IMG/VR virus record: IMGVR_UViG_3300011008_000181 | Length of the DNA stretch: 33,613 nt | Direction: 5' to 3' (one strand) | DNA from: a virus | In this document: piece after piece, positions 4,461-33,613 of the stretch | Numbering within the stretch: position 1 is the first letter of the stretch | Layout: each line of letters begins with the position of its first letter | Notes under the pieces: model-generated | What the model was told of the DNA's origin: nothing | Databases searched by the model: none | The model's input: only the letters and a program-made list of their open reading frames with translations | Position numbers and translations under genes: made by a program

Positions 4461-4481
4461 AAAGAAAGGGGTAAAACCAAA

Positions 4482-5714: not shown

Positions 5715-5737
5715 TAGCAAGGGGGCAAGGTTAAGCA

Positions 5738-8691: not shown

Positions 8692-11659
8692 GGGTATAAC
8701 AATTGAAATCGGCGGATCTACCCAAAAGTTAGATCAAGCCTTAAAGGGGGTTAATAACACCGCGAAATCGTTACAGAACGAATTAAAGGCGGTAAATAAC
8801 GCCCTTAAACTTGACCCGAAAAACGTAGAACTTGCAGCAAAGAAGCAGGAACTATTAAAAGAGTCGGTAGCAAATACAAAAGAAAAGTTAGACACCTTAA
8901 AGCAGGCGCAGGAACAAGCCCGCGCAGCGTTTGAACGCGGCGAAATGGGCGAAGACAAATACCGCGCACTTGAAACCGAGATCATCAACACGGAGTCAGA
9001 CTTAAAGAAACTTGAAACCGAGTTAGAGAACACAAAGAAAGACGCCGACAATTTAGGAATGGCAATGCAGGACGTCGGCGGTAGAATGCAGGCAGCAGGA
9101 CAGAAGATCGAGTCCGCCGGAAAAGCCCTTGCGCCTTTATCGGCAGCCGCCGCAGCCGTTGGCGCAGCTGCCGTTAAGTCCGCTATGGAATTAGACGAGG
9201 GCTACGACACCGTTATCACAAAGACGGGCGCAACGGGTAAGACATTAGAGTCCTTGAAAAATAGCGTTGATAATGTGTTTACAGATCTTCCAACAACCGC
9301 AGCAGACGCAGGAACGGCAATCGGAGAAGTAAACACCCGCTTCGGAGCAACGGGCAAGGAATTAGAAAGCCTTTCAAAAGATTTTATCCGCTTCGCGCAG
9401 ATCAACGGAACGGATCTAAACACGTCTATTGATAGCGTCGATAGCATAATGACAAAGTTCGGGGTTGACAGTAGCCAAACAACGAACGTATTAGGTCTTA
9501 TGACAAAGGCGGGGCAAGACACGGGAATTTCTATGGACGCGTTGGAAAGTTCTTTGCAGACCAACGGCGCAACCCTTAAAGAAATGGGGTTAGGTCTTAC
9601 CGAGTCCGTAAACCTACTTGCACAATTCGAGTCGTCCGGCGTTGATAGCACAACCGCCCTTGCAGGCTTGAAAAAAGCGCAGCAGAACGCAACCGCCCAA
9701 GGAAAAACCCTTGACGAAGCGTTGGGCGAAACCGTCGAGTCTATAAAGAACGCAGGAAGCGAAACCGAAGCGTTGCAGATCGCAACGGATCTTTTCGGAA
9801 AGAAAGGCGCGGCAGAAATGACGCAGGCGATCCGCGAGGGGCGTTTTTCCCTTGAAGATCTTACGGCGTCATTAGGCGACTACGGAACAACCGTCGAAGA
9901 TACATTCAACGCAACATTAGATCCGTGGGACGAAGCAAAAGTCGCGCTTAACAACTTAAAACTTGCAGGATCAGAACTTGCGGGCGAACTTTTAGCGTCA
10001 CTTCAACCCGTGATCGCTTCCGTTGTGGAAAAAGTGAAGAACTTTTCAACGTGGTTTAAGAATTTGGACGGCAACACAAAAGCACTTATCGGAAAGATCC
10101 TTTTACTTGTTGCGTCGTTGTCGCCCGCTTTAATGATAATCGGGAAACTAACGTCGGGAGTCGGCGGACTTGTTACGAAGATCGGCGGGGCAATAACGAA
10201 GATCGGCGGTTTGCAAGGCGTACTTGCCGCCCTAACGTCGCCCGTCGGAATTGTTATCGCAGCGATCGCCGCACTTGTCGCCGCTTTTGTGTATTTCTAC
10301 AAGACAAACGACGAGTTCCGCGAGAAAGTAAACGGCGCACTTGAAAAAGTAAAGACGGCGTTTACTAAAATGGTCGAAGCAATAAAGCCACTACTTGCGA
10401 ACCTTAAAGCGGCGTTTGATAGTCTTATGCAGGCTTTACAACCGATCTTTGAATTATGGATCAATTACATAACACGACTTGTTAGCGGAATAATGGCAGC
10501 CGTACCAAGCATTATTGCAGCCGTAACAAACGTCGTCGAGTTCATAACGAACATTATAAACGCGCTTGTTGCATTGCTTCACGGCGATTTTGAGGGCTTC
10601 TTTACCTACATAAAGGCAGCGTGGCAGAACGTTATAAACTTTATCAAAAACATATTGTCGGCGTGGGCGGCGTTCCTTTCAACGTTCTTTTCCGGCGTAT
10701 GGACGGCAATTAAGAATATCTTTTCCACCGTCGGAACGTGGTTTCAAACTATGTTTACAACCGCGTATAACAACATTGTGAACGCCTTTAAGAATATCGG
10801 ACAATGGTTTGCGGCAAGGTGGACGGACATTAAGAACGCACTTTCAACCGCGGCAACGTGGTTTTTAACTATGTTTCAAAATGCCTATAACAACATTGTG
10901 AACGTATTTAAGGCGATCGGACAATGGTTTGCGGCAAGGTGGACGGACATTAAGAACGCTTTATCAACCGTTGCAACGTGGTTTCAAACAATGTTTAACA
11001 ATGCCTACCAAAACGTTGTAAATATCTTTAAGGGTATCGGACAATGGTTTGGCGCACGTTGGACGGATATTAAGAACGTCTTTGCAAATGTGGCAACATT
11101 CTTTTCGGAGAAGTTCAACGCAGCAGCAACGGCAATTAAGAACGCCTTTACATCAATCCCGCAATTCTTCACGGATCTTTGGACGAAGATAACCGGAATA
11201 TTTAAGGACGCAGGGCAGAAAGTAGCCGACGGCGTTATGGGCGCGTTTAAGTCCGCTTGTAATTCCGTATTCGGTACGATTGAAAATATCGTAAACGGCT
11301 TTATAAATGCGATCAACGCCGTAATAGGAACAATAAACGAAATTCCGGGGGTTTCTATTGGCAAATTATCAACCGTAAGTCTTCCAAGACTTGCAAAAGG
11401 TGGTATCGTCGCAAAAGGTCAAGCGATCGTTGGAGAAGCAGGCGCGGAACTTCTTACCGTCGCAGGCGGAAAAGCAATCGTAACGCCGCTTTCCGGCAAG
11501 GATAAACAAAACACACTTGCGGCAGCAAGCGGCAAGGGCGACTTTATCCAAAATATAAAGATTGAGAGTCCGAAAGCCTTAACACCTTACGAGGTAGCAA
11601 GGCAGACGAGAAACCAAACCCGAAATATGGTTTTACAATTACAAGGGGGTAACGCTTAA
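8675..11659 (+). CDS. Tail tape measure protein
   Basis: 994 aa with an N-terminal coiled coil, a central hydrophobic segment and internal 40-aa tandem repeats. Canonical position. Confidence 0.9.
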   Translation: MAANIKGITIEIGGSTQKLDQALKGVNNTAKSLQNELKAVNNALKLDPKNVELAAKKQELLKESVANTKEKLDTLKQAQEQARAAFERGEMGEDKYRALETEIINTESDLKKLETELENTKKDADNLGMAMQDVGGRMQAAGQKIESAGKALAPLSAAAAAVGAAAVKSAMELDEGYDTVITKTGATGKTLESLKNSVDNVFTDLPTTAADAGTAIGEVNTRFGATGKELESLSKDFIRFAQINGTDLNTSIDSVDSIMTKFGVDSSQTTNVLGLMTKAGQDTGISMDALESSLQTNGATLKEMGLGLTESVNLLAQFESSGVDSTTALAGLKKAQQNATAQGKTLDEALGETVESIKNAGSETEALQIATDLFGKKGAAEMTQAIREGRFSLEDLTASLGDYGTTVEDTFNATLDPWDEAKVALNNLKLAGSELAGELLASLQPVIASVVEKVKNFSTWFKNLDGNTKALIGKILLLVASLSPALMIIGKLTSGVGGLVTKIGGAITKIGGLQGVLAALTSPVGIVIAAIAALVAAFVYFYKTNDEFREKVNGALEKVKTAFTKMVEAIKPLLANLKAAFDSLMQALQPIFELWINYITRLVSGIMAAVPSIIAAVTNVVEFITNIINALVALLHGDFEGFFTYIKAAWQNVINFIKNILSAWAAFLSTFFSGVWTAIKNIFSTVGTWFQTMFTTAYNNIVNAFKNIGQWFAARWTDIKNALSTAATWFLTMFQNAYNNIVNVFKAIGQWFAARWTDIKNALSTVATWFQTMFNNAYQNVVNIFKGIGQWFGARWTDIKNVFANVATFFSEKFNAAATAIKNAFTSIPQFFTDLWTKITGIFKDAGQKVADGVMGAFKSACNSVFGTIENIVNGFINAINAVIGTINEIPGVSIGKLSTVSLPRLAKGGIVAKGQAIVGEAGAELLTVAGGKAIVTPLSGKDKQNTLAAASGKGDFIQNIKIESPKALTPYEVARQTRNQTRNMVLQLQGGNA
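10696..11100 (+). repeat. In-frame tandem repeat, period exactly 120 nt (40 aa), about 3.4 copies, inside the tape measure gene
   Basis: GGACAATGGTTTGCGGCAAGGTGGACGGACATTAAGAACGC recurs exactly at 10799-10839 and 10919-10959, with a diverged copy at 11039. The peptide unit is WFAARWTDIKNALST..TWF.TMF.NAYNNIVN.FK.IGQ. Confidence 0.9.
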
Positions 11660-12542: not shown

Positions 12543-13586
12543 ATGGAAATTCGGATCTATAACCCCGATCTTTATAGGATCGGGCAAGTTGAAAACCAAA
12601 CGTCGCTTATATGGACGCGAAAGTTTTTTGAAGCCGGAAACTTCGAGATCCACGCCCCGATCACATCACGAAACCTTGAACTTTTCGCAAAAGGAAATAT
12701 CGTAAGCATAAAAGGGGCAAAGGAAGCGGGCGTTATTGAAGATTTGGAAAAGGAAGAAAGCGACATAAAAAACGAAATAACCGTAAAAGGGCGTTTCCTT
12801 TCTTCCTATATGGATCGCCGGATCATTCGCGGAACGGTAAATTACGATAACGCAAAGATCGAAGTAGTTATGCGCGAATTATTAAGCGCGTGCGTTCCAA
12901 TCCCGCTTGTAGAGTTGGGAGAACTTCACGGCTTCGACGATCGCGTTTCTTTTCAAGCGACATATAGAAATTTGCAAGTCGTTTTAACAAAAATTGCAAA
13001 GTTTGGTCTTATCGGCTACCGCTTCACGCCGGACTTTGACGAACACAAAATCGTATTCGACACAATGAAAGGCGTAGACCATTCTTTCGCACAAAGCACA
13101 AATAACCGCGTAGTCTTTTCGGAAGACTATAACAACCTTACAAATGCGATCTATAAGTTTAACGACCAAGCCTTGAAAACAAAAGCAATAGTCGGCGGGC
13201 AGGGCGACGGGGCGCAAAGGGTTGTTGTAGAAGTAGGCGGCGGCAGCGGGTTAGATCTTCGCGAAATGTTTGTCGACGCCCGCGATCTATCGCCGGAAGA
13301 CCTTACCGCGGCGCAATACAAGGAAGTATTAAAACAACGCGGATATGAAGCGTTGCAAGAAGCAATCGAAGCCGAAAGTTTAGAGTGTGAAACCGCGCCG
13401 GAAATAAATTTCAAGTATAAAAGCGACTATGATTTGGGCGACATTGTCACGATCAAAAAGAAGTCGTGGGGTTTGTATATGAACAAGCGTATAACCGAAA
13501 TACAAGAGGTTTACGAATACGGCGGGGGGTATGTAGTACCAACTTTGGGCGATCCACTTCCCGAAACGATAGATTGGGGGAATTAA
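12543..13586 (+). CDS. Tail-tip/baseplate protein (Gp37-like or Tal-like)
   Basis: 347 aa, follows Dit with a 1-nt gap. Called from position and weak recollection of the N-terminal pattern. Confidence 0.4.
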   Translation: MEIRIYNPDLYRIGQVENQTSLIWTRKFFEAGNFEIHAPITSRNLELFAKGNIVSIKGAKEAGVIEDLEKEESDIKNEITVKGRFLSSYMDRRIIRGTVNYDNAKIEVVMRELLSACVPIPLVELGELHGFDDRVSFQATYRNLQVVLTKIAKFGLIGYRFTPDFDEHKIVFDTMKGVDHSFAQSTNNRVVFSEDYNNLTNAIYKFNDQALKTKAIVGGQGDGAQRVVVEVGGGSGLDLREMFVDARDLSPEDLTAAQYKEVLKQRGYEALQEAIEAESLECETAPEINFKYKSDYDLGDIVTIKKKSWGLYMNKRITEIQEVYEYGGGYVVPTLGDPLPETIDWGN

Positions 13587-13589
13587 AAA

Positions 13590-14675
13590 ATGAGTGAATA
13601 CGCAATGTTTTACAATTCCGTAGAGGGCGACCGAGTTTATGACGCGGACGATATGACAGATTGGCTTAAACCTTTCTTCGTAACGGGCGTTTTTAACGGT
13701 CAAATGCAAGTAACCGCAAACGACGATATGACCGTCACAGTAGCGGACGGCTACGTCAATATAGGCGGAAAGGTTAAGAAGTTCCCGAACGCGCAGACAT
13801 TCGACATTGAAACGGCAAGCGGTACGCTTAACCGTATAGACAACGTTATTGTCCGCAGGAACGACACCGACCGCGATATTACGGTTATGATCCAAAAAGG
13901 CGGCTACGCGGAACACCCTACCGCACCGGAGATCGTAAGATCCAGCGCGTGCTACGACCTAAAGATCGCGGAAATCTATATTGCAGCAGGATCTATTAAG
14001 ATCACGCAAGCAGATATAACAGACACCCGCGCAGATAGTAGCGTTTGCGGTTGGGTTGTTTCAACGGTGCAGGAGATCGACTTTTCACAGATAACCGCAC
14101 AGTTTAACGCCTACTTCGCACGTTACCAAGGAATGATACAAAGTCAGTATGCAACCTACCTTTCAGTAATTGAGAATTTAGAGGGGCAGGGGCAGCAGGC
14201 ATATACAAATATGCTTAACGACTTTTCCGGTTACGAAGCAACGCAGCGGCAATTATTTTCGGATCTTTACGAAGAAATGCGCGATCTTATCGGCGAAGCA
14301 ACCGCGGCAATGTTACAAAACGAGATCGACGAGATCAAGAACACAACCGGAGTTATGGCGCGAAACCTTGCGACAAAATTAGCCTTTACAAACGGAACGG
14401 GCGAAACTTTGGAAGACTTCGTCTTGATCGTAACCAACACGGACACCGGAACGGTTACACGTTACACATTCAACGAAACAAGCCCGCTTCTTCTCACAGA
14501 ACACGGCGACTATACCGTGGAAGCAGAAGACGACGGCTACGTTGTATTACCGCACACGTTCACACTTGACCACACAAAGACAACCGAAACAATCAACTTC
14601 GATATTTATAGCGACGCGGGTTATGCTTATGTTGGCGGATATGTGGGCGCGTATGTAGCAAGTGGCGCAAACTAA
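13590..14675 (+). CDS. Tail fiber / baseplate upper protein-like
   Basis: 361 aa in the tail-tip module, with a central coiled-coil-like segment. Confidence 0.4.
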   Translation: MSEYAMFYNSVEGDRVYDADDMTDWLKPFFVTGVFNGQMQVTANDDMTVTVADGYVNIGGKVKKFPNAQTFDIETASGTLNRIDNVIVRRNDTDRDITVMIQKGGYAEHPTAPEIVRSSACYDLKIAEIYIAAGSIKITQADITDTRADSSVCGWVVSTVQEIDFSQITAQFNAYFARYQGMIQSQYATYLSVIENLEGQGQQAYTNMLNDFSGYEATQRQLFSDLYEEMRDLIGEATAAMLQNEIDEIKNTTGVMARNLATKLAFTNGTGETLEDFVLIVTNTDTGTVTRYTFNETSPLLLTEHGDYTVEAEDDGYVVLPHTFTLDHTKTTETINFDIYSDAGYAYVGGYVGAYVASGAN

Positions 14676-14699
14676 TTTATCAAAGAAAGGGGCTTAAAA

Positions 14700-15134
14700 A
14701 TGGCTTACAAAGTAAAAATAAATTGCAGGCAGGACTTTTTTAATTACCGCGATATGGCAAAGCAGGGGTTAGTTAAAACAAAAGACGTTATCAAAGAGAT
14801 TAAGCGCGTCAAGGGTCTTAACTACGACAAAGCGATCATCAACGAAATTTCGAGCGATCGTAAAACAATCAATGTAAATTACCTTGCAGAAGCGGACGAG
14901 GGAAGCGCGGCACGCGTTGGAAGCGTGGACGTTATCGTTAAGAGCGTTACACACAATCAGAGCGAACCGGACGAACACGGCAACGTAAACTTCCTTACAA
15001 GCGACATTGTCGTTAATAAGGCGGTAACGGCAGGGGCAACAACTTTCGATCTTGTCAACATTCCGAGTATCTACGAAAGATTAAACATCACGGAAGAAGA
15101 AGTCGACGAGATTTTGGCAGAATTAGAGGGATAA
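14700..15134 (+). CDS. Hypothetical tail-module protein
   Basis: 144 aa with a good RBS (AAAGGGG). Lies between fiber-like genes. Confidence 0.5.
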   Translation: MAYKVKINCRQDFFNYRDMAKQGLVKTKDVIKEIKRVKGLNYDKAIINEISSDRKTINVNYLAEADEGSAARVGSVDVIVKSVTHNQSEPDEHGNVNFLTSDIVVNKAVTAGATTFDLVNIPSIYERLNITEEEVDEILAELEG

Positions 15135-15153
15135 AGAAAGGAGATATAAAGCA

Positions 15154-16266
15154 ATGGCAAAGTTTTTCTTATTTGACGAGTCAATGCAGAGCGCAAAAGC
15201 GAAGATAACGACCGCCAAACTTGCGACAATGGGCGACATTGTGGCAAACGAAAAGGCTTTTATCTACGCAGAGGGCGAAGACGCGCCGGACGAAATTACC
15301 GTTATGGGAAACGTTCTTGTTGCGGTAGGAAATTCGATCTTTAAGACCGTAGAAACAACACTTACCGCCGCAAACCTTGATAGCGGATCGGCGTTCGTAG
15401 TCGGAACGGACTACAATATCTTTGTTTGCGATCCTACAAACGGCGACGAAACCGTGGATCAGAACGAAGTATTTGTAATTTCGGTATCAACAACTTATCC
15501 GGTAGGATATACCGCAGCAAATAGCCGTCGTATTGGCGGTTTCCATTACGGCGTAGTTCGTAAGATTGACGACAACGGCGAACCCGTAAACGCAAGCGGA
15601 ACAACACGCGGCAGCGGTTGGGAAAGCAATGTTTACAACGGGATCTTGCCTAATTCCGTATGGACGCTTTTACACCGTCCGAAGTGCGATCCCGCCGGAA
15701 TGGTTTACATTGGTAACGGTCTTTGGGGCGACATTTATTTGTCTTCCGACGATAATAACGGCGGTCTTGCTACAATTAAGGGCGCAAACCCTATTACCGG
15801 AACAGAGGGGCTTAATTGGTACATTGCCAACGAGAAAGCCCGCCGCGTAGGTAAAAGACTTCCTACATACGCGGAGTTTTGCCAAGCGGCAGCAGGCAGC
15901 CCCGCAGGGCAGGACGCAAACAATACTTACGCGTGGTCGGCTACCGGAAACACCGCAAGAACAAAGACCGGAAACGTAACTTACGCCGTTTCATCTATGA
16001 ACATTCGCGATCTTGTCGGCAACGTTTGGAAATGGGTAGACGAATTTTGCCTTGATCCTACGGCGTCCGCGTGGGCGTGGCAGGACGTTTTAGGAAGCGG
16101 ACACGGACAAGCATACATTCCGTCAAACACCGCGCTTCACGCGCTCATTTGCGGCGGGAGTTGGAACAACGGCGTCCGCGACGGCGACCGCGCCGTGGGT
16201 TGCGTCGATTACCCGTGGCACGTGAGCACGGCCTTTGGCGTTTGGTGCGTGTGTGACTCACAGTAA
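15154..16266 (+). CDS. DGR variable target protein, probable receptor-binding tail fiber with a C-terminal C-type-lectin/FGE-like fold
   Basis: 370 aa. The C-terminus 'RLPTYAEF...CGGSWNNGVRDGDRAVGCVDYPWHVSTAFGVWCVCDSQ' carries the VR over its last ~45 codons. It is the last gene of the tail module. Confidence 0.9.
   Translation: MAKFFLFDESMQSAKAKITTAKLATMGDIVANEKAFIYAEGEDAPDEITVMGNVLVAVGNSIFKTVETTLTAANLDSGSAFVVGTDYNIFVCDPTNGDETVDQNEVFVISVSTTYPVGYTAANSRRIGGFHYGVVRKIDDNGEPVNASGTTRGSGWESNVYNGILPNSVWTLLHRPKCDPAGMVYIGNGLWGDIYLSSDDNNGGLATIKGANPITGTEGLNWYIANEKARRVGKRLPTYAEFCQAAAGSPAGQDANNTYAWSATGNTARTKTGNVTYAVSSMNIRDLVGNVWKWVDEFCLDPTASAWAWQDVLGSGHGQAYIPSNTALHALICGGSWNNGVRDGDRAVGCVDYPWHVSTAFGVWCVCDSQ
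16131..16258 (+). repeat. DGR variable repeat (VR)
   Basis: 128 nt, 116/128 identical to the TR. All 12 differences fall at TR adenines. Confidence 0.95.
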
Positions 16267-16272
16267 GCAGAG

Positions 16273-16295
16273 GGCGGCGGCGAAAGCCGACCGCC
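16273..16295 (+). promoter_or_regulatory. GC-rich hairpin with GAAA loop just 3' of the VR (candidate DGR target-recognition hairpin/cruciform and/or terminator)
   Basis: In GGCGGCGGC-GAAA-GCCGACCGCC, the 9-nt 5' arm pairs with the 10-nt 3' arm to give a 9-bp stem with one bulged A. It starts 7 nt after the stop codon. Confidence 0.5.
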
Positions 16296-16333
16296 TTTCC
16301 CTAAAAATCTAAAAGAAAGGATATAACGGCGCA

Positions 16334-16765
16334 ATGCAGACGGCGGACGAGTACAAACCAAAATATGAAATACCGGAAACGGTCAAAGATACGGGCGCGG
16401 ACTACGTCCATACGAAAGCACATCAAGCGGCTTACGACTTTTCGGTTTATCTTCACGACAAAATGAAGAAATTACCACATTATGAAAAGTTTACATTGCA
16501 AAAAGAGATCCGCGACGCGATAGATCTAATATTGGACGAAATAGAACAATACGAGATCACGAAAGTTATTTCACACCTTTACGCGGCGGATCGGGCAAAA
16601 CGCCGACTTATGCGCAAGCTGCGGACTTGTTACGACCTTAAATATTCGGCAATCAATGAAAATGTTTTATTTTATTGCGCCGGACAATGCGCGATCATTG
16701 GTAAATTGATCGGGGGTCTTATCGGGGAAGCAAAAGAAAGAAAGCAGGGCGGCGCGGGTAAGTAA
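16334..16765 (+). CDS. avd: DGR accessory variability determinant (Avd, four-helix-bundle protein)
   Basis: 143 aa, predicted all-helical and basic. Sits between the target gene and the TR, as in canonical DGRs. Confidence 0.8.
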   Translation: MQTADEYKPKYEIPETVKDTGADYVHTKAHQAAYDFSVYLHDKMKKLPHYEKFTLQKEIRDAIDLILDEIEQYEITKVISHLYAADRAKRRLMRKLRTCYDLKYSAINENVLFYCAGQCAIIGKLIGGLIGEAKERKQGGAGK

Positions 16766-16826
16766 CCCGCCCGCCTTAACTTTGGGGCAACCGTTATTAC
16801 CGTATCGTTCGGGCGTTGCTATCCCG

Positions 16827-16954
16827 CGCGCTTCACGCGCTCATTTGCGGCGGGAATTGGAACAACGGCGTCCACGACGGCGACCGCGCCGTGAATTGCA
16901 ACAATTACCCGTGGAACGTGAACACGAACATTGGCGTTTGGTGCGTGTGTGACT
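16827..16954 (+). repeat. DGR template repeat (TR)
   Basis: A non-coding copy of the VR. In the VR frame it reads ALHALICGGNWNNGVHDGDRAVNCNNYPWNVNTNIGVWCVCD, which is rich in AAY codons. It contains 27 adenines. Confidence 0.95.
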
Positions 16955-17145
16955 TGTGAATTATAGACGGCGTCTTGTCCGCAAGCGTCGCAAGGGCTTT
17001 TATGTTAAGTCGTTTACATAGAGTCAGACGGTTGTAAAGAGATCCGCCGGACTTCCGGCGCGTCTTCCCGTTCCGGTTACGGACAAAGATTAAAGAACGA
17101 CGTTCCGAGAAGTAGCGAAAGCGAACCGCGGGGCGTCGTATTTTT
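16827..17145 (+). ncRNA. DGR template RNA (TR plus structured downstream spacer)
   Basis: No ORF spans this region. Several hairpins lie downstream of the TR, for example CGCCGG-ACTT-CCGGCG at 17045-17060 and an 11-bp stem pairing 17097-17107 with 17129-17139, followed by ATTTTT. Confidence 0.6.
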
Positions 17146-17166
17146 ATACTATTAGGAAATTGGAAA

Positions 17167-18222
17167 ATGAAGACAGAAAAGCACGTTTTAGACGCGATTT
17201 GTACGATAAAGAACGCGCTAAAAGCCTACCAAAAGGCGCGAAAGTGCAAAAGATACCGACCGGAAGTATTAAGGTTTGAAGCAAACAGAGAAACGAACCT
17301 TGCAAGGGCTATTTTAGACATAAGAAACGGGACATATAAGGCGGGGCGGTATTACGTCTTTAAGGTCTACGAACCAAAAGAACGCCTTATTATGGCTTTA
17401 CCGTTCTACGATCGAGTGATCCAACATATGATCGTAAACATTATCGAACCGATCTTTGAAAAACGCTTCGTCTTTCATTCTTACGCTTGCAGGAAAGACA
17501 AGGGCGCACACGCGGCAAGCGATACGCTTTCACGTTGGCTTTACAATTTGCAAGTAAAGCAGAAAAAGAAGATCTACGCTATTAAAGCGGACATACACCA
17601 CTATTTCCAAAGCATAGATCACGAAGTTTTAAAAGAAGAAGTTAGACGGTATATATCAGACAAAGCCGTTTTGAAGATATTAGACCATATTATCGACCAT
17701 AACGGGATCTATCCCGACGGCGTCGGTATTCCGGTCGGGAATTTGACGTCGCAATTATTCGCGAACGTCTATTTGAACATATTAGATCATTACATAAAGC
17801 ACAATTTGGGCGTCCGGTACTATTTGCGGTATATGGACGACTTTATTATTTTAGGGGAAGATCCGGCGGAGTTGCGAAAGGAATTGCAGCAGATAAACGA
17901 ATTTGTAGAAACCCGCTTGCATTTACACTTAAACCCGAAAACGACGATCATAGCGGCGAAAAACGGCGTTGATTTTGTGGGATATAGACACTTTCCGTCT
18001 TTTAGGATCTTACGAAAGGGCGCAACCCGCAGGATCAAGAAATTACTTCACGCGTTCAAAACCGGAGAAGTCGACGAAGAATTGTTCGACCGTTCTATGG
18101 AAAGCAGGATCGGACACGCACGCCACGCCGACACGTTCAAATTATGCGAGGAACTACGGGGCGAAGTTAAGCAAATAAAACTAATAACAAACGGGCGTTT
18201 TGATTGTGTAATATGTGGGTAA
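17167..18222 (+). CDS. DGR reverse transcriptase
   Basis: 351 aa with RT motifs including 'GIPVGNLTSQLFANVYL' (the DGR-type xGxxxSQ) and 'RYMDDFIILG' (YMDD). Adjacent to the TR. Confidence 0.95.
   Translation: MKTEKHVLDAICTIKNALKAYQKARKCKRYRPEVLRFEANRETNLARAILDIRNGTYKAGRYYVFKVYEPKERLIMALPFYDRVIQHMIVNIIEPIFEKRFVFHSYACRKDKGAHAASDTLSRWLYNLQVKQKKKIYAIKADIHHYFQSIDHEVLKEEVRRYISDKAVLKILDHIIDHNGIYPDGVGIPVGNLTSQLFANVYLNILDHYIKHNLGVRYYLRYMDDFIILGEDPAELRKELQQINEFVETRLHLHLNPKTTIIAAKNGVDFVGYRHFPSFRILRKGATRRIKKLLHAFKTGEVDEELFDRSMESRIGHARHADTFKLCEELRGEVKQIKLITNGRFDCVICG
18182..18221 (+). repeat. 40-nt repeat copy B (39/40 identical to 2362-2401), covering the last 13 codons of the RT ORF
   Basis: Direct alignment by eye. 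Only the 3' arm of the copy-A hairpin is present here. Confidence 0.9.
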
Positions 18223-18253
18223 ATCAAAGAAAACAGAAAGGAAACCGGAAACA

Positions 18254-18640
18254 ATGAACGAACCAATTATGTTTACCCCGCAGGACATTATAAACGCTAT
18301 TTTGGCGGTTTGTGGGGCTATATCAGTAGTTGCAGGGGCGACCGCCGTTATTGTGAAGTGTGTTACCGCTATGAGAAAGCCAAACAAGACACAAGACGAG
18401 CGCTTGGACGCATTAGAAGCGGACGTTAAGGACGTGAAAGAAAGGATCGACGCAGAGTGCGAACGAATAACAGATCGCTTTCACGACGACGGATCACACA
18501 TTGACAAGATCGAAGAAGCGAACGTCGTAACCCAACGCGCATTACTTGCGCTTTTGTCCCACTCAATCAACGGGAACGACATAGAAAGTTTGAAGCGGGC
18601 AAAAACAGACCTTGAAAATTATTTGACAAGTAATTCATAA
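18254..18640 (+). CDS. Membrane-anchored coiled-coil protein (lysis-module associated)
   Basis: ATG at 18254 is favoured over the GTG at 18215. Has one N-terminal TM segment ('ILAVCGAISVVAGATAVIV') followed by a coiled coil. Confidence 0.5.
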   Translation: MNEPIMFTPQDIINAILAVCGAISVVAGATAVIVKCVTAMRKPNKTQDERLDALEADVKDVKERIDAECERITDRFHDDGSHIDKIEEANVVTQRALLALLSHSINGNDIESLKRAKTDLENYLTSNS

Positions 18641-18663
18641 CAAGGCGCAGGGGGCGGGGAAAT

Positions 18664-18786
18664 ATGGCAATTTTGGTTTTGATTATAGTTTTAATGGGTT
18701 TCGGGCTATTATCCGCCGGACTTATTGCGGGAACGATCGCACTTGCGGAAATGGGAGAAGTCCAAAAGCACGAAAAGGAAAAGTGA
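18664..18786 (+). CDS. Small single-TM protein (40 aa), below the ORF-track cutoff
   Basis: Translates as MAILVLIIVLMGFGLLSAGLIAGTIALAEMGEVQKHEKEK. The RBS GGGGGCGGGG lies upstream. Confidence 0.4.
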   Translation: MAILVLIIVLMGFGLLSAGLIAGTIALAEMGEVQKHEKEK

Positions 18787-18790
18787 TTTT

Positions 18791-19078
18791 ATGAAAGGCA
18801 AAAGAAAAAAGAAGATCGAAACGTCGAAGATCCTTTTAATAGTATCGGACGTAATAACGGGAGTTTGTACCGTCGCGGCAATAGTCGCGGTCTTCGTAAT
18901 TAAGGACACAACGCCGCTTGTTTATCTTATTCCGGCGGCTTATGGTCTTTCGGCTACTTCCCACGGTTTCTATTATTGGAAAGCGAAAGCCGAAAACTTG
19001 CAGAAGTTCGGACGCCTTGACGCGGTAACAATGGAAGATCCGCAGGACATACCGGACGAAAACAATTTTACAGTTTGA
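18791..19078 (+). CDS. Two-TM membrane protein, holin-like
   Basis: The internal ATG at 18791 gives 95 aa: a basic N-terminus, two hydrophobic helices and an acidic C-terminus. Confidence 0.5.
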   Translation: MKGKRKKKIETSKILLIVSDVITGVCTVAAIVAVFVIKDTTPLVYLIPAAYGLSATSHGFYYWKAKAENLQKFGRLDAVTMEDPQDIPDENNFTV

Positions 19079-19096
19079 AAGGGGGGTAAACCACAA

Positions 19097-19441
19097 ATGA
19101 CAGTAACTTTATTTGCAACGATCCTTACATTGGGCGCAATGGCAAACGCGCTTTTAACGGAAGCGATCAAAAAAATGTATGAAAACGACGGGAAGACCTA
19201 TTCGGCAAACGTTGTCGCGCTTGCAGACGCTTTTATTATTGGCGGTTTGGGAACGGCGGCGGTTTATATGCTTATGGGTATTCCGTGGACGGTCAATAAT
19301 ATTATTTGCCTTGTTATTATGATCGTCGCGGTTTGGGTTGCTTCAATGGTCGGATATGATAAATTGATCCAACTTGTAAAGCAGATCGAAACCGTTACAC
19401 CAAAGCAGGCAGAAAACGCAGATCATAGAAAGGAAGTGTAA
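19097..19441 (+). CDS. Putative holin (multi-TM)
   Basis: 114 aa with about 3 TM segments. Ends 3 nt before the endolysin gene. Confidence 0.6.
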   Translation: MTVTLFATILTLGAMANALLTEAIKKMYENDGKTYSANVVALADAFIIGGLGTAAVYMLMGIPWTVNNIICLVIMIVAVWVASMVGYDKLIQLVKQIETVTPKQAENADHRKEV

Positions 19442-19444
19442 TTT

Positions 19445-20152
19445 ATGGGCGTTTATATCGGATCGGCAAGGATTGACGAAAGAGGAAAAGCAAGCGGCGG
19501 CGCGGTAGGAGATCAGAAGCAGACGGCGGCGCAGGACTACGCGGGCGAAGTATCAATGCAAAAGTTTTATGTAGCGTCAAAGGGTTGGAACATTCTTCGA
19601 GCAAAAGACGCAAATATCGCGCTTCGTATTGCGGCGGCAATGATAACCGCTTGTAATAACAAAAATATCGGCTACGATCAAAGTAACCGTTTAGGCGTTA
19701 TTAAATACGGGACGGGATCAACAGTAAAAACCGAGTGCGATTGTTCTTCCCTTGTAAGACAATGCGTAAAGGAAGCCGCAGGCGTTGACGCCGGAAACTT
19801 CACAACGGCAAACGAAAAGAATATGCTTACAAAAACGGGCTTATTCGACGCGCTTACTTATTCCGCAGGAATGACACTTTACACGGGCGACATTCTTAAA
19901 ACGCAGGGTCACACCGTAGTAGTTACAAGCGGCGCAGCGCGCAACACTTCGACCGGATCTTATTACCCCGTTTATTCGGGATCTACAACAAGCATTGTTG
20001 CCGCACTTGCAGCCGTAGGCGAGAAAGACACGTCTTACGCACACCGCGAGAAGATCGCAAAGGCAAACGGCGTCGCAGGATATAAGGGAACGGCAGCACA
20101 AAACACCGGACTTCTTAATTTGTTAAAGCAGGGCAAATTAAAGAAAGCATAA
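19445..20152 (+). CDS. Endolysin, Cys/His peptidase type (NlpC/P60- or CHAP-like) with a C-terminal wall-binding-like domain
   Basis: 235 aa. 'ECDCSSLVRQC' is a candidate Cys nucleophile and 'TQGHTVVVTSG' a candidate His. Follows the holin-like genes. Confidence 0.65.
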   Translation: MGVYIGSARIDERGKASGGAVGDQKQTAAQDYAGEVSMQKFYVASKGWNILRAKDANIALRIAAAMITACNNKNIGYDQSNRLGVIKYGTGSTVKTECDCSSLVRQCVKEAAGVDAGNFTTANEKNMLTKTGLFDALTYSAGMTLYTGDILKTQGHTVVVTSGAARNTSTGSYYPVYSGSTTSIVAALAAVGEKDTSYAHREKIAKANGVAGYKGTAAQNTGLLNLLKQGKLKKA

Positions 20153-20172
20153 ATCAAAGAAAGGGGTAAACA

Positions 20173-20754
20173 ATGGCAAAGAAAACCACAAAAGAAGCAG
20201 AAATCGAAGCAGCAGCAAAAGAGGAAGTAAAAGCCGAATTGCAGCAGGCGCAGGAAGAAGCGCAGCAGGCAGCGGGCGAAGAACCCGCCGACGACTTTAT
20301 GAACCCGCCGGAAGATCCAAAGACGGGACACCTTGACGCCGGACAGTTGGCGGAATGGAACAAAAAAGAACTTGTAGACCTTGCGAAAGATTTAGAAATC
20401 AAGGGCGCGCACGATATGAGCAAAGAAGATCTTATCGCGGCGATCGTTGCGGTTGAAGTGGAGATCCCAAACGAGGAAGAAGCAGGCGTAGAACCCGAAG
20501 AAGCAGGCGCGGAAGATCCGGCAGCGGACGAAGCGCAGGACGTGGAAAACTTCGAGGTTAAAAAGGGCGATACCGTACACTTAAAAGCCGTTATGCCTAT
20601 TTATGACAAGATCGGCGGCGATCAGATCGGAACGGCTTACAAGTATAACGCCTTACTTGTCGAGGAAGTAAAGAAGCAGGGCGACCGCGTTTACATCAAG
20701 GCAGAAGCGGGCTACATTGTGGCAAAGGACGAAGCAAACGTCTATATTATGTAA
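20173..20754 (+). CDS. Acidic hypothetical protein with a HeH/Rho-N-like motif
   Basis: 193 aa. Contains 'NKKELVDLAKDLEIKGAHDMSKEDLIAAI' and a beta-rich C-terminus. Good RBS. Confidence 0.5.
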   Translation: MAKKTTKEAEIEAAAKEEVKAELQQAQEEAQQAAGEEPADDFMNPPEDPKTGHLDAGQLAEWNKKELVDLAKDLEIKGAHDMSKEDLIAAIVAVEVEIPNEEEAGVEPEEAGAEDPAADEAQDVENFEVKKGDTVHLKAVMPIYDKIGGDQIGTAYKYNALLVEEVKKQGDRVYIKAEAGYIVAKDEANVYIM

Positions 20755-21225: not shown

Positions 21226-21252
21226 AGACGACGGAAACCCCGCCGTCTTTTT
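21226..21252 (+). terminator. Intrinsic terminator
   Basis: AGACGACGG-AAACC-CCGCCGTCT (one mismatch) followed by TTTTT. Confidence 0.6.
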
Positions 21253-21288
21253 GTTATAAATATTTTTTACATATTGCGCAATAACCTA

Positions 21289-21317
21289 TTGACATATTAC
21301 GCAATATGTATTATATT
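21289..21317 (+). promoter_or_regulatory. Promoter TTGACA-17-TATATT overlapped by the palindromic motif CATATTACGCAATATG
   Basis: The -35 hexamer is at 21289-21294 and the -10 at 21312-21317. Motif copies lie at 21270-21282 and 21293-21308. Confidence 0.55.
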
Positions 21318-21366
21318 ATAATTACCGAAAGGCAATAAACCACGCAAAAGAAAGGAATAAACCACA

Positions 21367-21585
21367 ATGACAAACGCAGAAATTAAAGCAAGAAACCTTA
21401 TAGCAAAGAGAAGCACCGAAGAACTTATCGCAGACTTTGAAGCGACCGAAACAAACAACGATCCTTATATCCCTACCGTTCGCGGTTGGATAATGGACGA
21501 GTTAGAAAGCAGAAACGAAACGGCTTTTGAAAAATGGATCGATAGCGAAGAAGAAAGCCCAAGAAAGTTTTTCATAGCAGCATAA
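21367..21585 (+). CDS. Hypothetical protein (72 aa)
   Basis: Carries the conserved leader AGAAAGGAATAAACCACAATG. Confidence 0.5.
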   Translation: MTNAEIKARNLIAKRSTEELIADFEATETNNDPYIPTVRGWIMDELESRNETAFEKWIDSEEESPRKFFIAA

Positions 21586-22580: not shown

Positions 22581-24296
22581 TTACACCTTATAAATAAAAC
22601 GCGCTTCAAGACCGTTTTTAAAGAGGATCGCGGACACACGCCCGCCTTTTATTTCTATCTTTTCGACAATCATATTTGCAAACTTCTTCAAAGTTTCATT
22701 CCCGACAGTTCCGGCAAAATCGGGGTAGTTTATTTCTTCGCCCGATTGGATCTTATACGACAAAAGAAATTCGCCTGCAGATTGCACGAAAGAAAGTTCC
22801 GACACATTCACAAACGCCGCGTCTTGCGCGTCGGCTATTTCGTTATTTATGCGCGTAAGTTCTTCTTCAAGTTCCGCCCGTGTGGATAAGTATTCGCGTT
22901 CGTCCATTGCGTCGTCGTCGAAAAGATACGCTTTCTTTAATCGTTCCAATGCGCGGGAGATCTTCGCGGCTTCCTTGCGTTTTGTTTCAATAGATCCGGT
23001 CTTCTTATTGTCCGGCAGCGGGGCGGGGATATAAGAAGCGGACGCAGACACCCCGCGCAGGGCGTCGAATATTTGGCGAAGTGATCCGCTATCCATTTGT
23101 AAAACGTCCTTGAACGCTTCGCCGGATAAAAGCCGCCTTTCGAGATCTTCCGATCCGGCGTCTATGATTGCTTTTCTTTTCTTTGTTGCGCCTACAAGGT
23201 TAGAAACGAAGTTGAAGAAGAACGCCCCGACAATAATATCGCTTGTATTTGCAGCAGAACACGCCCGTTTTTGCGTCAAAGTGTAACAACGGTAATATGT
23301 AGGTTGAAAACCGTTCTTTCGCATTTTATCCGCCCCGCGGGATTGAAAGAACGCCCCGCAATCGCAGCAGACCAAAAGACCCGCGAAGACGTGGGCGAAC
23401 TTCCTTTTATGCGTCGTCCCGTTCTTGTTCATAGCCTTATAGTTTGCCGCTATTTGTTCTTGTACTTTATCGAACGTTTCGCCGTCCACAATAGGCGGGA
23501 AGACGTCTTTAACGTAAACGACTTCTTCTTCCGGTTTCTTCTTCCCGCGTGCGCTATGGCGGTAGTTATACCGATAATCGCCGCGGTTTATAGGGTTGTG
23601 CAGAATATCGCCGACGGTTTTAGTAGTCCAAAGCCCGCCCCGCTTCGTTGGAATATCATTTGCGTTTAGATAGTCACGGATCGCGGCGGTTGTCTTTGTT
23701 TCAAGATACATATTATACATAAGGCGAACGACGGCGGCTTCCGCCTCGTCGTGGATCGGCTTTTCGTTTTCTTCGTCCCACGCCCAACCGTAAGGAACGC
23801 GCGCCCCGTTCCATTTACATTCTTTCGCGCGTCCGATCATAACGCCCGTTACACGTTCCGAAGTAAGTTTCCTTTCAAGTTCCGCAAAAACAAGAATGAT
23901 TTTAAGGACGGCTTCGCCGATAGCGGAAGACGTGTCGAATTGTTCGTTTAGAGATATAAACGTCGTCCGGTTGTCTTTAAAATCGTCGTACATTTGGGAG
24001 AAATCAACAAGGTTTCGGGAAATACGGTCGATTTTGTAGACGACAACCCGCGCAACCTTGCCCGACTTAACCTTTTTCATCATACGTTGAAACGCGGGGC
24101 GATCCGTATTTTTACCGGACTTCCCCGCGTCTTCGTAGACTTCGAGTTCGTCCGGCGATAAATGCAGGACGTGGACGCAATAATTTTTAAGTTCTTTCTT
24201 TTGGAATGGTAAAGAGTCTTTGTCTATTTGGTAGCCCGTAGAAACACGGACATATAAAGCCGTGATCCGGCTATCTTTCCCGCCTTTTTCGTTCAT
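22581..24296 (-). CDS. int: Large serine recombinase (phage integrase)
   Basis: 571 aa. N-terminal resolvase domain 'ALYVRVSTGYQ' (catalytic Ser) and 'YKIDRISRN', recombinase domain, zinc ribbon 'CCDCG...YYRC', and a C-terminal coiled coil. Confidence 0.92.
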   Translation of the reverse strand: MNEKGGKDSRITALYVRVSTGYQIDKDSLPFQKKELKNYCVHVLHLSPDELEVYEDAGKSGKNTDRPAFQRMMKKVKSGKVARVVVYKIDRISRNLVDFSQMYDDFKDNRTTFISLNEQFDTSSAIGEAVLKIILVFAELERKLTSERVTGVMIGRAKECKWNGARVPYGWAWDEENEKPIHDEAEAAVVRLMYNMYLETKTTAAIRDYLNANDIPTKRGGLWTTKTVGDILHNPINRGDYRYNYRHSARGKKKPEEEVVYVKDVFPPIVDGETFDKVQEQIAANYKAMNKNGTTHKRKFAHVFAGLLVCCDCGAFFQSRGADKMRKNGFQPTYYRCYTLTQKRACSAANTSDIIVGAFFFNFVSNLVGATKKRKAIIDAGSEDLERRLLSGEAFKDVLQMDSGSLRQIFDALRGVSASASYIPAPLPDNKKTGSIETKRKEAAKISRALERLKKAYLFDDDAMDEREYLSTRAELEEELTRINNEIADAQDAAFVNVSELSFVQSAGEFLLSYKIQSGEEINYPDFAGTVGNETLKKFANMIVEKIEIKGGRVSAILFKNGLEARFIYKV

Positions 24297-24312
24297 AGTG
24301 GTTTATTCCTTT

Positions 24313-24744
24313 CTATACTTCCTTACGCTTGCGTAGACCGAAATAAAGGCAGGCGCAGCCGATAGCAACACCGACAAGCCCGCCGACATTCCCGCCAAGA
24401 ACCGCACCGCCGCCAACAAACAACGCGAAGATCCCGAAACCGATTAAAAGACCGCCTTTCTTCTTTGAGTGATCGGCAGCAGGGGCGGACGTATCAAAAG
24501 AAGATCCGACGTCCGATCCGGCAGCAGGCGCAGAACCGGACACGCCACGCAACGTATCGCCGACGCCGAACGTCGTTTTGTGGTATATGGAATTTTTGAC
24601 AGATTTTGCGGGATCTTTCACGAAGCCCGCGCCCTTTTTGCCGTAAACCGGATTGACCGACTTTTTGACCGCGCGGGTTACTTTGCCCGTCGTCCTTGCT
24701 TTTATAGACTTCTTAATGTTTGGTTTGCGCATACCGACTTTCAT
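24313..24744 (-). CDS. Membrane-anchored protein in the lysogeny operon (basic N-terminus, Gly-rich C-terminal TM)
   Basis: 143 aa. 'GLLIGFGIFALFVGGGAVLGGNVGGLVGVAIGCACLYF' is hydrophobic. Overlaps the repressor stop by 4 nt. Confidence 0.55.
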   Translation of the reverse strand: MKVGMRKPNIKKSIKARTTGKVTRAVKKSVNPVYGKKGAGFVKDPAKSVKNSIYHKTTFGVGDTLRGVSGSAPAAGSDVGSSFDTSAPAADHSKKKGGLLIGFGIFALFVGGGAVLGGNVGGLVGVAIGCACLYFGLRKRKEV

Positions 24745-25617: not shown

Positions 25618-25644
25618 AACGATCAAAGAAAGGAATAAACCACA

Positions 25645-33579: not shown

Positions 33580-33613
33580 CTTCAAAAAAACTCTACGCGT
33601 GCGCGTGCGCGTA
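33580..33613. repeat. 34-nt direct terminal repeat, right copy
   Basis: Exact match to nt 1-34. Confidence 0.95.

Follow-up and report, generated by a model that had tools for sequence, protein, structure and literature searches.

The window, by which we mean the whole 33,613-nucleotide stretch of DNA analysed (IMG/VR record IMGVR_UViG_3300011008_000181), is a ~33.6-kb temperate, siphovirus-like tailed phage of rumen or gut Clostridia. Besides lysis genes and a serine integrase, it encodes TerL, portal, protease, MCP, TMP, Dit and tail proteins. The 34-nt repeat at its termini points to an assembly that is complete and circular. A blastn search for cultured or GenBank phages returned no match, and the closest sequences come from Clostridia MAG contigs and from uncultivated contigs in IMG/VR. 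Positions 15154 to 18222 hold three open reading frames and a pair of repeats:

15154-16266, plus strand: target gene, encoding a 370-aa Mtd-like receptor-binding or tail protein
16131-16258, plus strand: variable repeat (VR), approximately the last 42 codons of the target, a 128-nt ungapped repeat of TR
16334-16765, plus strand: avd (accessory variability determinant), encoding a helical protein of 143 aa
16827-16954, plus strand: template repeat (TR), the invariant, non-translated master copy
17167-18222, plus strand: DGR reverse transcriptase (RT), 351 aa, intact

The boundaries of the three reading frames and the order target-avd-TR-RT, which is that of the DGR of phage BPP-1, agree with the first-pass annotation of this DNA.

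Repeat search, MAFFT alignment and direct tabulation all yielded the same gap-free 128-nt alignment of VR and TR, with 116 identities and 12 mismatches. Each of the 12 mismatches coincides with a TR adenine (8 A>G, 2 A>T and 2 A>C), and the full 128-nt alignment contains none at a TR C, G or T. The TR comprises 27 A, 40 G, 35 C and 26 T, and the hypergeometric probability that 12 of 12 random mismatches land on A is 7.3e-10. Nine codons are altered in the VR (N>S, H>R, N>G, N>V, N>D, N>H, N>S, N>A and I>F), seven of which are AAY in the TR. The length of the repeat, the restriction of its mismatches to adenines and the codon changes had been described from the sequence at the outset, and each was reproduced here. 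The VR ends 5 nt upstream of the target stop codon. A degenerate pattern with N at each TR adenine matches only the VR and the TR in the whole window, which indicates a single DGR target. The 27 TR adenines occupy codon positions 1, 2 and 3 in 12, 15 and 0 cases, respectively, with nine AAY codons, and just one A occurs in the final 24 nt of the repeat. No stop codon can be reached through adenine substitution in the TR. Because the adenines are confined to codon positions 1 and 2, adenine mutagenesis of the TR could yield up to ~1e16 stop-free protein variants.

Judged by homology, the target is a full-length relative of Mtd whose C-terminal C-type-lectin/FGE-type domain carries the VR. An HMM search yielded matches to the Pfam Mtd second domain PF21916 (3e-29, 102 bits, gathering score 24.6) and to the FGE-sulfatase family PF03781 (27.9 bits, above the gathering score of 23.3). 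In a phmmer search, target residues 60-368 match the Mtd crystal structures 2iou and 1yu0 with an E value of 4e-12; the alignment reaches 2iou residues 84-372 and places the VR segment of the target upon the VR segment of Mtd. The C-type-lectin/FGE-like scaffold that the first-pass annotation placed at the end of the protein is thus borne out. The target also matches phrog_11262 ('tail protein') at 3.5e-59, and tblastn aligns it to BPP-1 mtd with 29% identity across 92% of the query. Its gene, as had been proposed, is the final one of the tail module on the gene map and precedes the lysis genes. A receptor-binding role of the 370-aa protein is probable from these homologies; like Mtd, it may assemble as a trimeric pyramid whose VR face contacts a receptor on the host surface. 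Full-length Mtd homologues occur as targets of this kind in only about a dozen GenBank phage records. The DGR target of the Bacteroides Hankyphage is not known to be a full-length Mtd homologue.

The 143-aa protein encoded between VR and TR is Avd according to its sequence relationships. It matches phrog_3206 ('Avd protein of DGR') at 2.3e-13. As a single sequence it scores under the curated cut-offs of both NCBIfam DivGenRetAVD (1.9e-9) and Pfam bAvd (1.9e-7), and single-protein phmmer against the PDB returned no match. A profile built from 22 orthologues matches bAvd 4DWL at 1.4e-10 and chain B of 8ub7 at 8.5e-10, in keeping with the helical Avd-like protein proposed at this position.

Search scores and motifs place the RT with the DGR RTs. 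Residues 3-327 align with BPP-1 bRT (PDB 8ub7_A) with an E value of 6.6e-61 and 209 bits, far ahead of the next PDB matches, which are group II/retron-type RTs at ~1e-17 and at most 66 bits. The two motifs on which the DGR assignment had been founded were located: VGNLTSQ at residues 190-196 (nt 17734-17754), which fits the DGR motif (I/V/L)GxxxSQ, and the YxDD catalytic motif as YMDD at residues 222-225 (nt 17830-17841). R73, F65 and I75 align with bRT R74, F66 and I76. The RT further matches phrog_1423 at 2e-125 and Pfam RVT_1 at 3e-20. Its best GenBank match is 44% identical, and relatives at 54-71% identity reside in Lachnospiraceae and Clostridiales genomes. Some GenBank relatives carry a 'retron-type' annotation.

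One might instead ascribe the RT to a retron, a group II intron or a DRT/Abi defence system and regard the 128-nt repeat as an unrelated duplication. Such a reading could draw on the NCBIfam results, where the RT passed no model and its top match was the group II intron RT model (133.8 bits against a cut-off of 300), on the generic RT and weak DRT matches in PADLOC, and on the 'retron-type' labels. However, the NCBIfam retron and DRT models also score far under their cut-offs, the bRT match exceeds those of group II/retron-type RTs in the PDB more than threefold in bits, and Pfam identified no maturase or endonuclease domain in the protein. The Rfam search returned no intron RNA or retron ncRNA, and neither neighbour gene of the RT matches a defence family in PADLOC. 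Among the 135 RT relatives having a repeat, moreover, 129 are flanked by a TR/VR pair with at least 80% of its mismatches at template adenines. An origin in one of these other systems thus appears exceedingly improbable, and the protein is treated below as a DGR RT.

Two elements follow the VR:

16259-16272, plus strand: VR-flanking sequence CACAGTAAGCAGAG, in the IMH position and including the stop codon at 16264-16266
16273-16295, plus strand: hairpin/cruciform target-recognition element GGCGGCGGC-GAAA-GCCGACCGCC, 14 nt after the VR

The VR-flanking sequence is nearly invariant in 10 relatives with RT identities down to 77%, and it is missing from the TR side, where a different sequence follows the repeat. 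By analogy with IMH and IMH* of BPP-1, this flank may confer directionality. In the hairpin, a GC stem of 9 bp, interrupted by a single bulged A (16290), is capped by a GAAA loop at 16282-16285; the single-stranded DNA fold has an energy of -12 kcal/mol (z = -3.1). It is invariant in every relative examined while its flanks vary, and the terminator scan does not list it. Recognition hairpins of DGRs possess a GC-rich stem of 7-10 bp and a 4-nt GRNA loop, located 4-34 bp after the VR (PMC3240598), and the hairpin of the window agrees with this description.

The region surrounding the TR contains the following predicted elements of the DGR RNA:

16781-16796, plus strand: conserved RNA element UUUGGGGCAACCGUUA, upstream of TR
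16955-17166, plus strand: spacer (Sp) of the DGR RNA, 212 nt, analysed by an alignment of 28 spacers and an RNAalifold consensus
16968-16990, plus strand: Avd-binding-like stem-loop, 9 bp, with a bulged U16973 and a UCCG loop
16995-17025, plus strand: spacer hairpin
17022-17034, plus strand: spacer segment AGUCAGACGGUUG, invariant in the alignment of 28 spacers
about 17071-17083, plus strand: spacer hairpin
17110-17113 (AAGU) with 16952-16955 (TR 3' end, ACUU), plus strand: tentative candidate for a cis-priming duplex

The RNAalifold consensus of the relatives' spacers exhibits compensatory changes in 11 of 22 predicted pairs. The spacer's single-sequence fold is not significant (z = -0.42), and a search against Rfam gave no family match. 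In all 28 sequences the upper stem of the stem-loop at 16968-16990 is paired, and each of its positions shows 3-4 types of pair. This stem-loop would correspond to the Avd-binding stem-loop of BPP-1, a label taken by analogy from the cryo-EM structure of the BPP-1 RNP. The UUUGGGGCAACCGUUA motif is kept upstream of the TR in relatives with RT identity down to 53%, and its positions 16787-16795 pair with spacer positions 17027-17035 in a long-range duplex. Over 15 distinct sequences this duplex is 94% paired, compared with 26-54% for slid controls, and two of its pairs show compensatory changes (C-G/A-U/U-A and C-G/U-A). By analogy it resembles the 'cPRT Stop' duplex of BPP-1, although its 9 bp fall below the reported average of 13 bp for such duplexes (bioRxiv 10.1101/2023.10.23.563531). 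The pairing of the TR 3' end with AAGU at 17110-17113 comprises just 4 bp with one covarying pair, adjoined by the conserved A17114, and is tentatively suggested as the cis-priming duplex.

Turnover of the VR was followed in relatives of the phage. Three close relatives (L001, L083 and L084) originate from other samples and share 92-97% identity with the window when the VR is set aside. Compared with the VR of the window itself, close relatives vary at 14 of the 27 adenine sites and at 0-1 of the 101 remaining ones. In pairwise comparisons of these genomes and the window, the VRs differ at 13-16 of the 27 adenine sites and at 0-1 of the 101 other sites (p <= 1.5e-10 for the adenine-site excess); their TRs differ by at most 1 nt and their VRs by 13-16 nt. 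The TR substitution T93C of L001 and L083 is also found in the VRs of both, and in a further relative, L005, all five non-A differences in the TR are mirrored in its VR. A private TR change in L084 (G19) was not copied to the L084 VR. Over nine relatives, 98 of 100 VR/TR mismatches are at adenines, a count that leaves out relative L004 and two repeat-boundary positions. In L004, six of 13 VR/TR mismatches are at non-adenines, so that the present TR of a clade member need not be the source of its VR. At the non-adenine positions 61, 93 and 94 the L004 VR agrees with the TR type found in the window/L001 sub-lineage and not with its own TR; at position 121 it agrees with its own TR. An assembly chimera or ordinary recombination could also account for the L004 VR.

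Taken together, the comparison of relatives indicates that sequence passes in one direction, from TR to VR, as in mutagenic retrohoming. Phage tail-fibre tips are recombination hot spots, and the VR differences might alternatively stem from homologous recombination, or from co-infecting phages swapping their receptor-binding-domain cassettes, a reading to which L004 lends itself because its own TR fits its VR less well than does the TR type of another sub-lineage. Recombination cannot, however, explain why every pairwise comparison concentrates 13-16 differences in the adenine-templated sites and leaves 0-1 to the 101 others, nor why, at every non-A site, a VR agrees with its own TR. Neither an invertase nor a cassette array lies close to the DGR, and the window contains no donor cassettes matching VR variants. 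We regard recombination in place of retrohoming as very improbable.

The DGR is evidently active in this phage lineage. Homing in it has been very recent, since genomes diverged by ~3% differ completely in the VR and a TR substitution has been copied to it. The first-pass annotation had called the system 'apparently active', and the near-identical phages uphold this wording: differences among their VRs lie almost exclusively where the TR has an adenine, and substitutions in the TR recur in the VR. For the window's own copy, present-day activity is suggested by its intactness together with the relatives. This copy could nonetheless be a fossil, in which an active ancestor produced the VR/TR differences and these now persist as a frozen record with no further retrohoming. 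The case for activity here is a comparative one drawn from sequences, and both the L004 VR, out of step with its TR, and the uncopied G19 of L084 would suit a fossil. Drift, on the other hand, would add non-A mismatches between VR and TR, of which the window has none. The three reading frames are intact and full length relative to their structural homologues, the hairpin and RNA elements are intact, and a fossil sits poorly with ~3%-diverged genomes that have replaced their VRs. A fossil therefore has only a slim chance of being correct, and we favour a functional element.

The region 15154-18222 is thus, with high probability, a complete DGR of the BPP-1 type (target-avd-TR-RT) that diversifies an Mtd-like tail protein by mutagenic retrohoming. 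Its RNP architecture, cis-priming and integration mechanism are modelled here on homologous systems. In the proposed mechanism, a transcript would cover the avd 3' flank, the TR and the 212-nt spacer. This RNA would fold round the RT-Avd complex such that the stem-loop just 3' of the TR touches Avd and the template is enclosed by the long-range duplex in which the spacer pairs with the region 5' of the TR. The RT would then make cDNA from the TR, faithfully at C, G and U and with misincorporation opposite the 27 adenines. At the 3' end of the tail gene, this cDNA would take the place of the VR, guided there by the VR flank and by the hairpin with its GC-rich stem and GAAA loop 14 nt past the VR. 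The resulting variants, up to the ~1e16 given above, would reshape the ligand-binding face of the C-type-lectin domain and change the host receptors open to the phage. By homology, the ecological meaning would be a phage that continually re-tunes its receptor specificity.

Between sub-lineages with only 77-87% RT identity, the VR flank and the recognition hairpin hardly differ. Together with the match of the L004 VR to a foreign TR type, this raises the idea, which we consider unlikely, that related DGR phages sharing a rumen community may rewrite each other's receptor-binding genes in trans. If so, cDNA from one co-infecting phage would home into the target of another, and the TR would be a shared, exchangeable 'design' within the phage community.

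Within the well-known class to which it belongs, the DGR of the window is an ordinary, textbook case. DGRs that target tail proteins are frequent in phages and have been thoroughly catalogued (PMC8144416, PMC6199706); with thousands of them on record, the present one opens no new question. Its value lies in the clean and complete state of a DGR carried by a phage that infects Gram-positive gut or rumen anaerobes, with a full-length Mtd homologue as its target and with natural near-isogenic genomes that already record VR turnover and TR-to-VR copying. It is also well suited to comparison with the mechanistic model of BPP-1, as the recognition hairpin, the Avd-binding-like stem-loop and the long-range duplex are recognisable and supported by covariation, which supports the generality of the BPP-1 RNP architecture.

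The closest known system is the BPP-1 DGR (mtd-avd-TR-brt; Mtd structures 1YU0/2IOU, bAvd 4DWL and the bRT-Avd-RNA RNP 8UB7), with which the window shares its gene order. Homology between the target and Mtd extends over ~92% of the target and takes in the second domain as well as the C-terminal CLec VR. The RTs are related across residues 3-327 of the RT in the window, and Avd too is homologous. Both systems possess a GC-rich GAAA-loop hairpin downstream of the VR, a tetraloop-capped stem-loop with a flipped-out base after the TR and a long-range duplex bracketing the TR. However, protein identities are ~29% for the target and below 45% for the RT, and the window belongs to a Gram-positive Clostridia host and a siphovirus-like virion module with a tape-measure protein, whereas BPP-1 is short-tailed with a proteobacterial host. 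The VR/TR homology of the window stops at ...GACT, and the extended IMH/IMH* homology and (GC)14 tract of BPP-1 are absent. The spacer measures 212 nt compared with ~140 nt in BPP-1 and adds a clade-specific extra hairpin. Gut Bacillota prophage DGRs, such as the Eubacterium rectale DSM 17629 element (PMC3240598 Fig. 5) and those of Faecalibacterium prophages (PMC11792537), and the viral tail-protein DGR clades from a global survey (PMC8144416) share with the window a temperate lifestyle and gut anaerobe hosts. In these, too, the DGR is positioned between the genes for tail and lysis, its target is of the CLec type and its hairpin has a GRNA loop. The Hankyphage DGR (PMC6199706) likewise diversifies a CLec-fold tail protein in a temperate gut phage, and its activity too was inferred from VR differences among near-identical genomes, but it belongs to another host phylum and another phage lineage.

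The repeat search returned 16131–16258, the variable repeat (VR) at the 3′ end of the target gene, and 16827–16954, the template repeat (TR), as a two-copy direct repeat of 128 nt with 91% identity. In the MAFFT alignment the similarity ends abruptly on either side. Direct tabulation placed all 12 mismatches on TR adenines (8 A>G, 2 A>T and 2 A>C; p = 7.3e-10 by chance, hypergeometric), with none among the 101 C, G and T positions of the TR. Nine codons are altered between TR and VR, seven of which are AAY in the TR. The repeat, the exclusive location of its mismatches on adenines and the nine amino acid changes listed in the first-pass annotation were all reproduced. Recombination was considered as the source of the VR differences between related phages; it cannot explain their site specificity.

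The 27 TR adenines occupy the first (12) and second (15) codon positions and never the third. Nine TR codons are AAY, and no codon can be converted to a stop by adenine substitution. The theoretical repertoire of the TR is 4^27 = 1.8e16 DNA variants, or ~1e16 protein variants. The final 24 nt of the repeat hold a single adenine and so provide a block of invariant 3′ homology. A search pattern carrying N in place of every TR adenine matched the 33.6-kb window at the VR and TR only, with no second VR or remote target, and the element therefore has a single target. The genes that accompany the repeats in this diversity-generating retroelement (DGR), together with the integrase gene of the phage, are as follows:

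15154–16266, plus strand: target gene, 370 aa, with the second domain of the BPP-1 target protein Mtd (PF21916, 3e-29) and an FGE-sulfatase/CLec region above gathering score
16334–16765, plus strand: accessory protein Avd, 143-aa ORF, PHROG 'Avd protein of DGR' 2e-13
17167–18222, plus strand: reverse transcriptase (RT), 351-aa ORF, Pfam RVT_1
22581–24296, minus strand: large serine integrase, phrog_95, 4e-120

The solved RT structure closest to that of the window is Bordetella phage bRT in its complex with Avd and RNA (8ub7_A, E 6.6e-61, 209 bits, residues 3–327), compared with ~65 bits for group II intron and 'retron-type' RTs. The DGR-type motif VGNLTSQ (residues 190–196) and YMDD (residues 222–225) are present, upholding the assignment first made by eye, and the residues aligned with bRT F66, R74 and I76 are conserved. 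None of the curated NCBIfam RT family cut-offs was reached (133.8 bits against 300 for the group II model), and PADLOC gave only generic RT or weak DRT matches. In an automated scan of all loci fetched, adenines in the RT-proximal copy account for at least 80% of the mismatches in 129 of the 135 RT relatives with a repeat of the pre-RT region. No Rfam match was obtained at gathering thresholds over the whole window, and the curated families do not include the DGR RNA. The alternative of a non-DGR RT is contradicted by the bRT best match, by the lack of an Rfam match and by the adenine-biased repeats of the RT relatives.

Pfam and NCBIfam Avd models match the 143-aa protein with scores under the curated cut-offs, and a PDB search with the single sequence (phmmer) gave only noise. 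A profile of 22 Avd orthologues, taken from the same position of related loci, matched BPP-1 Avd (bAvd, 4DWL; 1.4e-10) and also the Avd chain in 8ub7 (8.5e-10), which together with the PHROG match substantiates the proposed Avd-like protein. Residues 60–368 of the target, VR segment included, align to Mtd crystal structures (E 4e-12), in agreement with the FGE-sulfatase/CLec region and with the CLec/FGE-type target that had been suggested. Among GenBank phages, near-full-length matches of the target are limited to Mtd of the BPP-1 group, which aligns across 92% of the query at 29% identity, and to a few mtd genes besides. The family questions are settled because the sequences are homologous to the solved Mtd, bRT and bAvd structures. 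The 144-aa ORF directly upstream of the target (14700–15134) has no Pfam or PHROG match; by its position, its product could be an adaptor or a tail-fibre assembly factor that serves the Mtd-like protein.

A DNA hairpin, GGCGGCGGC-GAAA-GCCGACCGCC, is located at 16273–16295, 14 nt past the VR; its GAAA loop caps a 9-bp GC stem interrupted by one bulged A. Its folding energy as ssDNA is −12 kcal/mol (z = −3.1), and it is unchanged in 10 of the 10 relatives examined, with variable sequence after it. DGR hairpins, established by experiment in BPP-1 and seen in other phage DGRs, have a 7–10 bp GC-rich stem and a 4-nt GRNA loop and lie 4–34 bp after the VR (PMC3240598); the window hairpin falls within each of these limits. 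As an intrinsic terminator the hairpin was rejected: it lacks a U-tract and was not listed by the terminator scan.

Conservation of the 212-nt spacer between TR and RT, and of the 45 nt preceding the TR, extends to relatives with RT identity down to 53%. RNAalifold analysis of 28 spacers yielded 22 pairs, 11 of which show compensatory changes. The first helix (16968–16990), 13 nt after the TR, comprises a 9-bp stem, a bulged U and a UCCG tetraloop, and by analogy would be the counterpart of the Avd-binding stem-loop described for the BPP-1 DGR RNA (bioRxiv 10.1101/2023.10.23.563531). A long-range duplex joins 16787–16795, within the conserved UUUGGGGCAACCGUUA upstream of the TR, with 17027–17035, within the invariant AGUCAGACGGUUG. 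It is 94% paired across 15 distinct sequences, compared with 26–54% in slid controls, has compensatory changes at two pairs, and probably corresponds to the 'cPRT Stop' duplex of the BPP-1 RNA. With the spacer alone, RNAalifold pairs GACG (17028–17031) with a downstream CGUU. The pairing with the element upstream of the TR is preferred because of the compensatory changes, and it is possible that both form at different stages. The 3′ end of the TR (16952–16955) may also pair with AAGU at 17110–17113, beside a conserved A; this candidate for the cis-priming duplex of BPP-1 is only 4 bp long, too short to be secure. Priming would be expected at or next to 17113/17114, with the first templated base near 16950–16951. 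Support for the predicted structure comes from covariation only, and the single-sequence fold of 16766–17166 is no better than shuffles (z = −0.42).

Viewed across loci, window segments 16781–16796 and 16955–17166 and the same regions of ~50 related loci form a conserved, covarying structured RNA with no Rfam family. It comprises a UNCG- or GNRA-capped stem-loop, the invariant AGUCAGACGG motif and the long-range duplex, and is common to DGRs of gut Clostridia phages with RT identity down to 53%. The window sub-lineage has an additional hairpin at ~17039–17066, inserted after the AGUCAGACGG motif.

Three related contigs from other samples, L001, L083 and L084, are 92–97% identical to the window outside the VR. 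The samples behind the near-identical contigs carry the identifiers IMG 3300021426, ODAI010350795, JAEEGL015103349 and SRR873610. Their TRs are each one base from the window TR, and every VR is different. Each of the six pairwise comparisons shows VR differences at 13–16 of the 27 adenine-templated sites and at 0–1 of the 101 others (p <= 1.5e-10). The one non-A difference is T93C: found in the TRs of L001 and L083, it is also found in their VRs, and the window has T in both repeats. All five non-A TR differences of the more distant L005 are mirrored in its own VR, and its nine VR/TR mismatches are all at adenines. Such mirrored TR changes are what repeated TR-to-VR copying after lineage divergence would predict. 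Over nine relatives, 98 of 100 VR/TR mismatches are at adenines, a count that leaves out the related locus L004 and two repeat-boundary positions. These comparisons of near-identical phages bear out the apparent activity proposed in the first-pass annotation and suggest activity of the element now or in the very recent past. That the copy in this genome is a fossil is unlikely given the perfect intactness of the cassette and the zero non-A VR/TR mismatches.

A few positions depart from the pattern. TR position 19 of L084, near the 5′ end of the repeat, is G, with T in its own VR and in all other TRs, and looks like a private TR mutation that has not yet been copied into the VR. Position 87 of the related locus L086 (TR G, VR C) looks like a VR point change. 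In L004 (VR 4976–5103, TR 5668–5795; from IMG 3300021254) only 7 of 13 VR/TR mismatches are at adenines; at non-A positions 61, 93 and 94 its VR agrees with TRs of the window/L001 sub-lineage, and at position 121 with its own TR. The mismatched VR of L004 is possibly an assembly chimera, or the result of local recombination or of trans-homing between co-circulating phages. A whole swap of the target gene from a window-like phage was rejected, with non-VR identity only 78%.

The window is a phage, with genes for TerL, portal, protease, major head protein, a tape-measure protein of 994 aa, Dit and additional tail proteins. The tail genes are followed by the DGR, small membrane proteins, an endolysin-like gene and the serine integrase on the minus strand. 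Since tail genes precede the DGR and lysis-type genes come after it, the target is the last gene of the tail module, as had been read from the sequence. Positions 1–34 are identical to 33580–33613, and this exact 34-nt terminal direct repeat indicates that the assembly is circular and complete, with a phage genome of ~33,579 bp. tRNA and tmRNA scans of the whole window returned nothing. No DNA match to 13000–20500 was found among GenBank phages by blastn, and thus the phage has no cultured relative; the nearest RT of cultured phages in GenBank is at most 44% identical. The close relatives are uncultivated (contigs from IMG/VR, from metagenomes and from Clostridia MAGs), and remoter ones (54–71% RT identity) reside within Lachnospiraceae and Clostridiales genomes. 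The host is therefore most likely a rumen or gut member of the Clostridia.

Several other repeats occur in the genome. Between the lysis module and the serine integrase, a non-coding, AT-rich imperfect inverted repeat (21247–21331; 37-nt arms, 11-nt spacer) is a candidate attP or regulatory region. The tape-measure gene (8675–11659) contains a 120-nt unit in three tandem copies at 10700–11105, 75–83% identical. A block of ~31–37 nt, AAAGAAAGGAATAAACCACAATGA…, at 21347–21383, 25625–25661 and 4462–4498, and inverted at 24284–24314, consists of a ribosome-binding site and start codon found at several gene starts, including the divergent pair at ~24.3 and 25.6 kb beside the integrase and regulatory region. 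Two direct copies of a 48-nt sequence share 92% identity: the one at the terL–portal junction (2357–2404) encodes a 22-aa remnant ORF ending …ITNGRFYCVICG, and the one at the RT 3′ end (18177–18224) spans the last 15 RT codons (…ITNGRFDCVICG*) and the beginning of the next ORF. The repeat supplies the 3′ arm of an inverted repeat that resembles a terminator (AAAACGCCCGTT…AACGGGCGTTTT), and TGTGTAATAT, similar to an extended −10 element, comes next. In three related contigs, one of them just 86% identical overall, the terL-side copy is kept exactly. This repeat may be a shared late promoter or terminator element, or a scar left by recombination of the DGR/lysis module.

The BPP-1 model is the best-supported mechanism for the element, whose VR/TR pattern, parts and lineage turnover were observed. 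Extended by homology to the RNP contacts, priming site, integration chemistry and receptor binding, the model predicts that RNA of avd, TR and spacer would assemble with RT and Avd, and that the TR would be reverse-transcribed with misincorporation opposite adenines. The VR-flanking sequence and the hairpin would then guide the cDNA to take the place of the VR, and the ligand-binding face of the Mtd-like receptor-binding protein, predicted to be a trimer with the VR residues distal, would be varied. Every testable defining feature of a DGR was found in the window element, which belongs to the already known class of DGRs targeting phage tail proteins. Many such DGRs are known from the gut and from other microbiomes (PMC8144416, PMC6199706, PMC11792537), and among them the window element stands out mainly as a clean Gram-positive, siphovirus-borne, full-length-Mtd DGR with natural near-isogenic VR variants.
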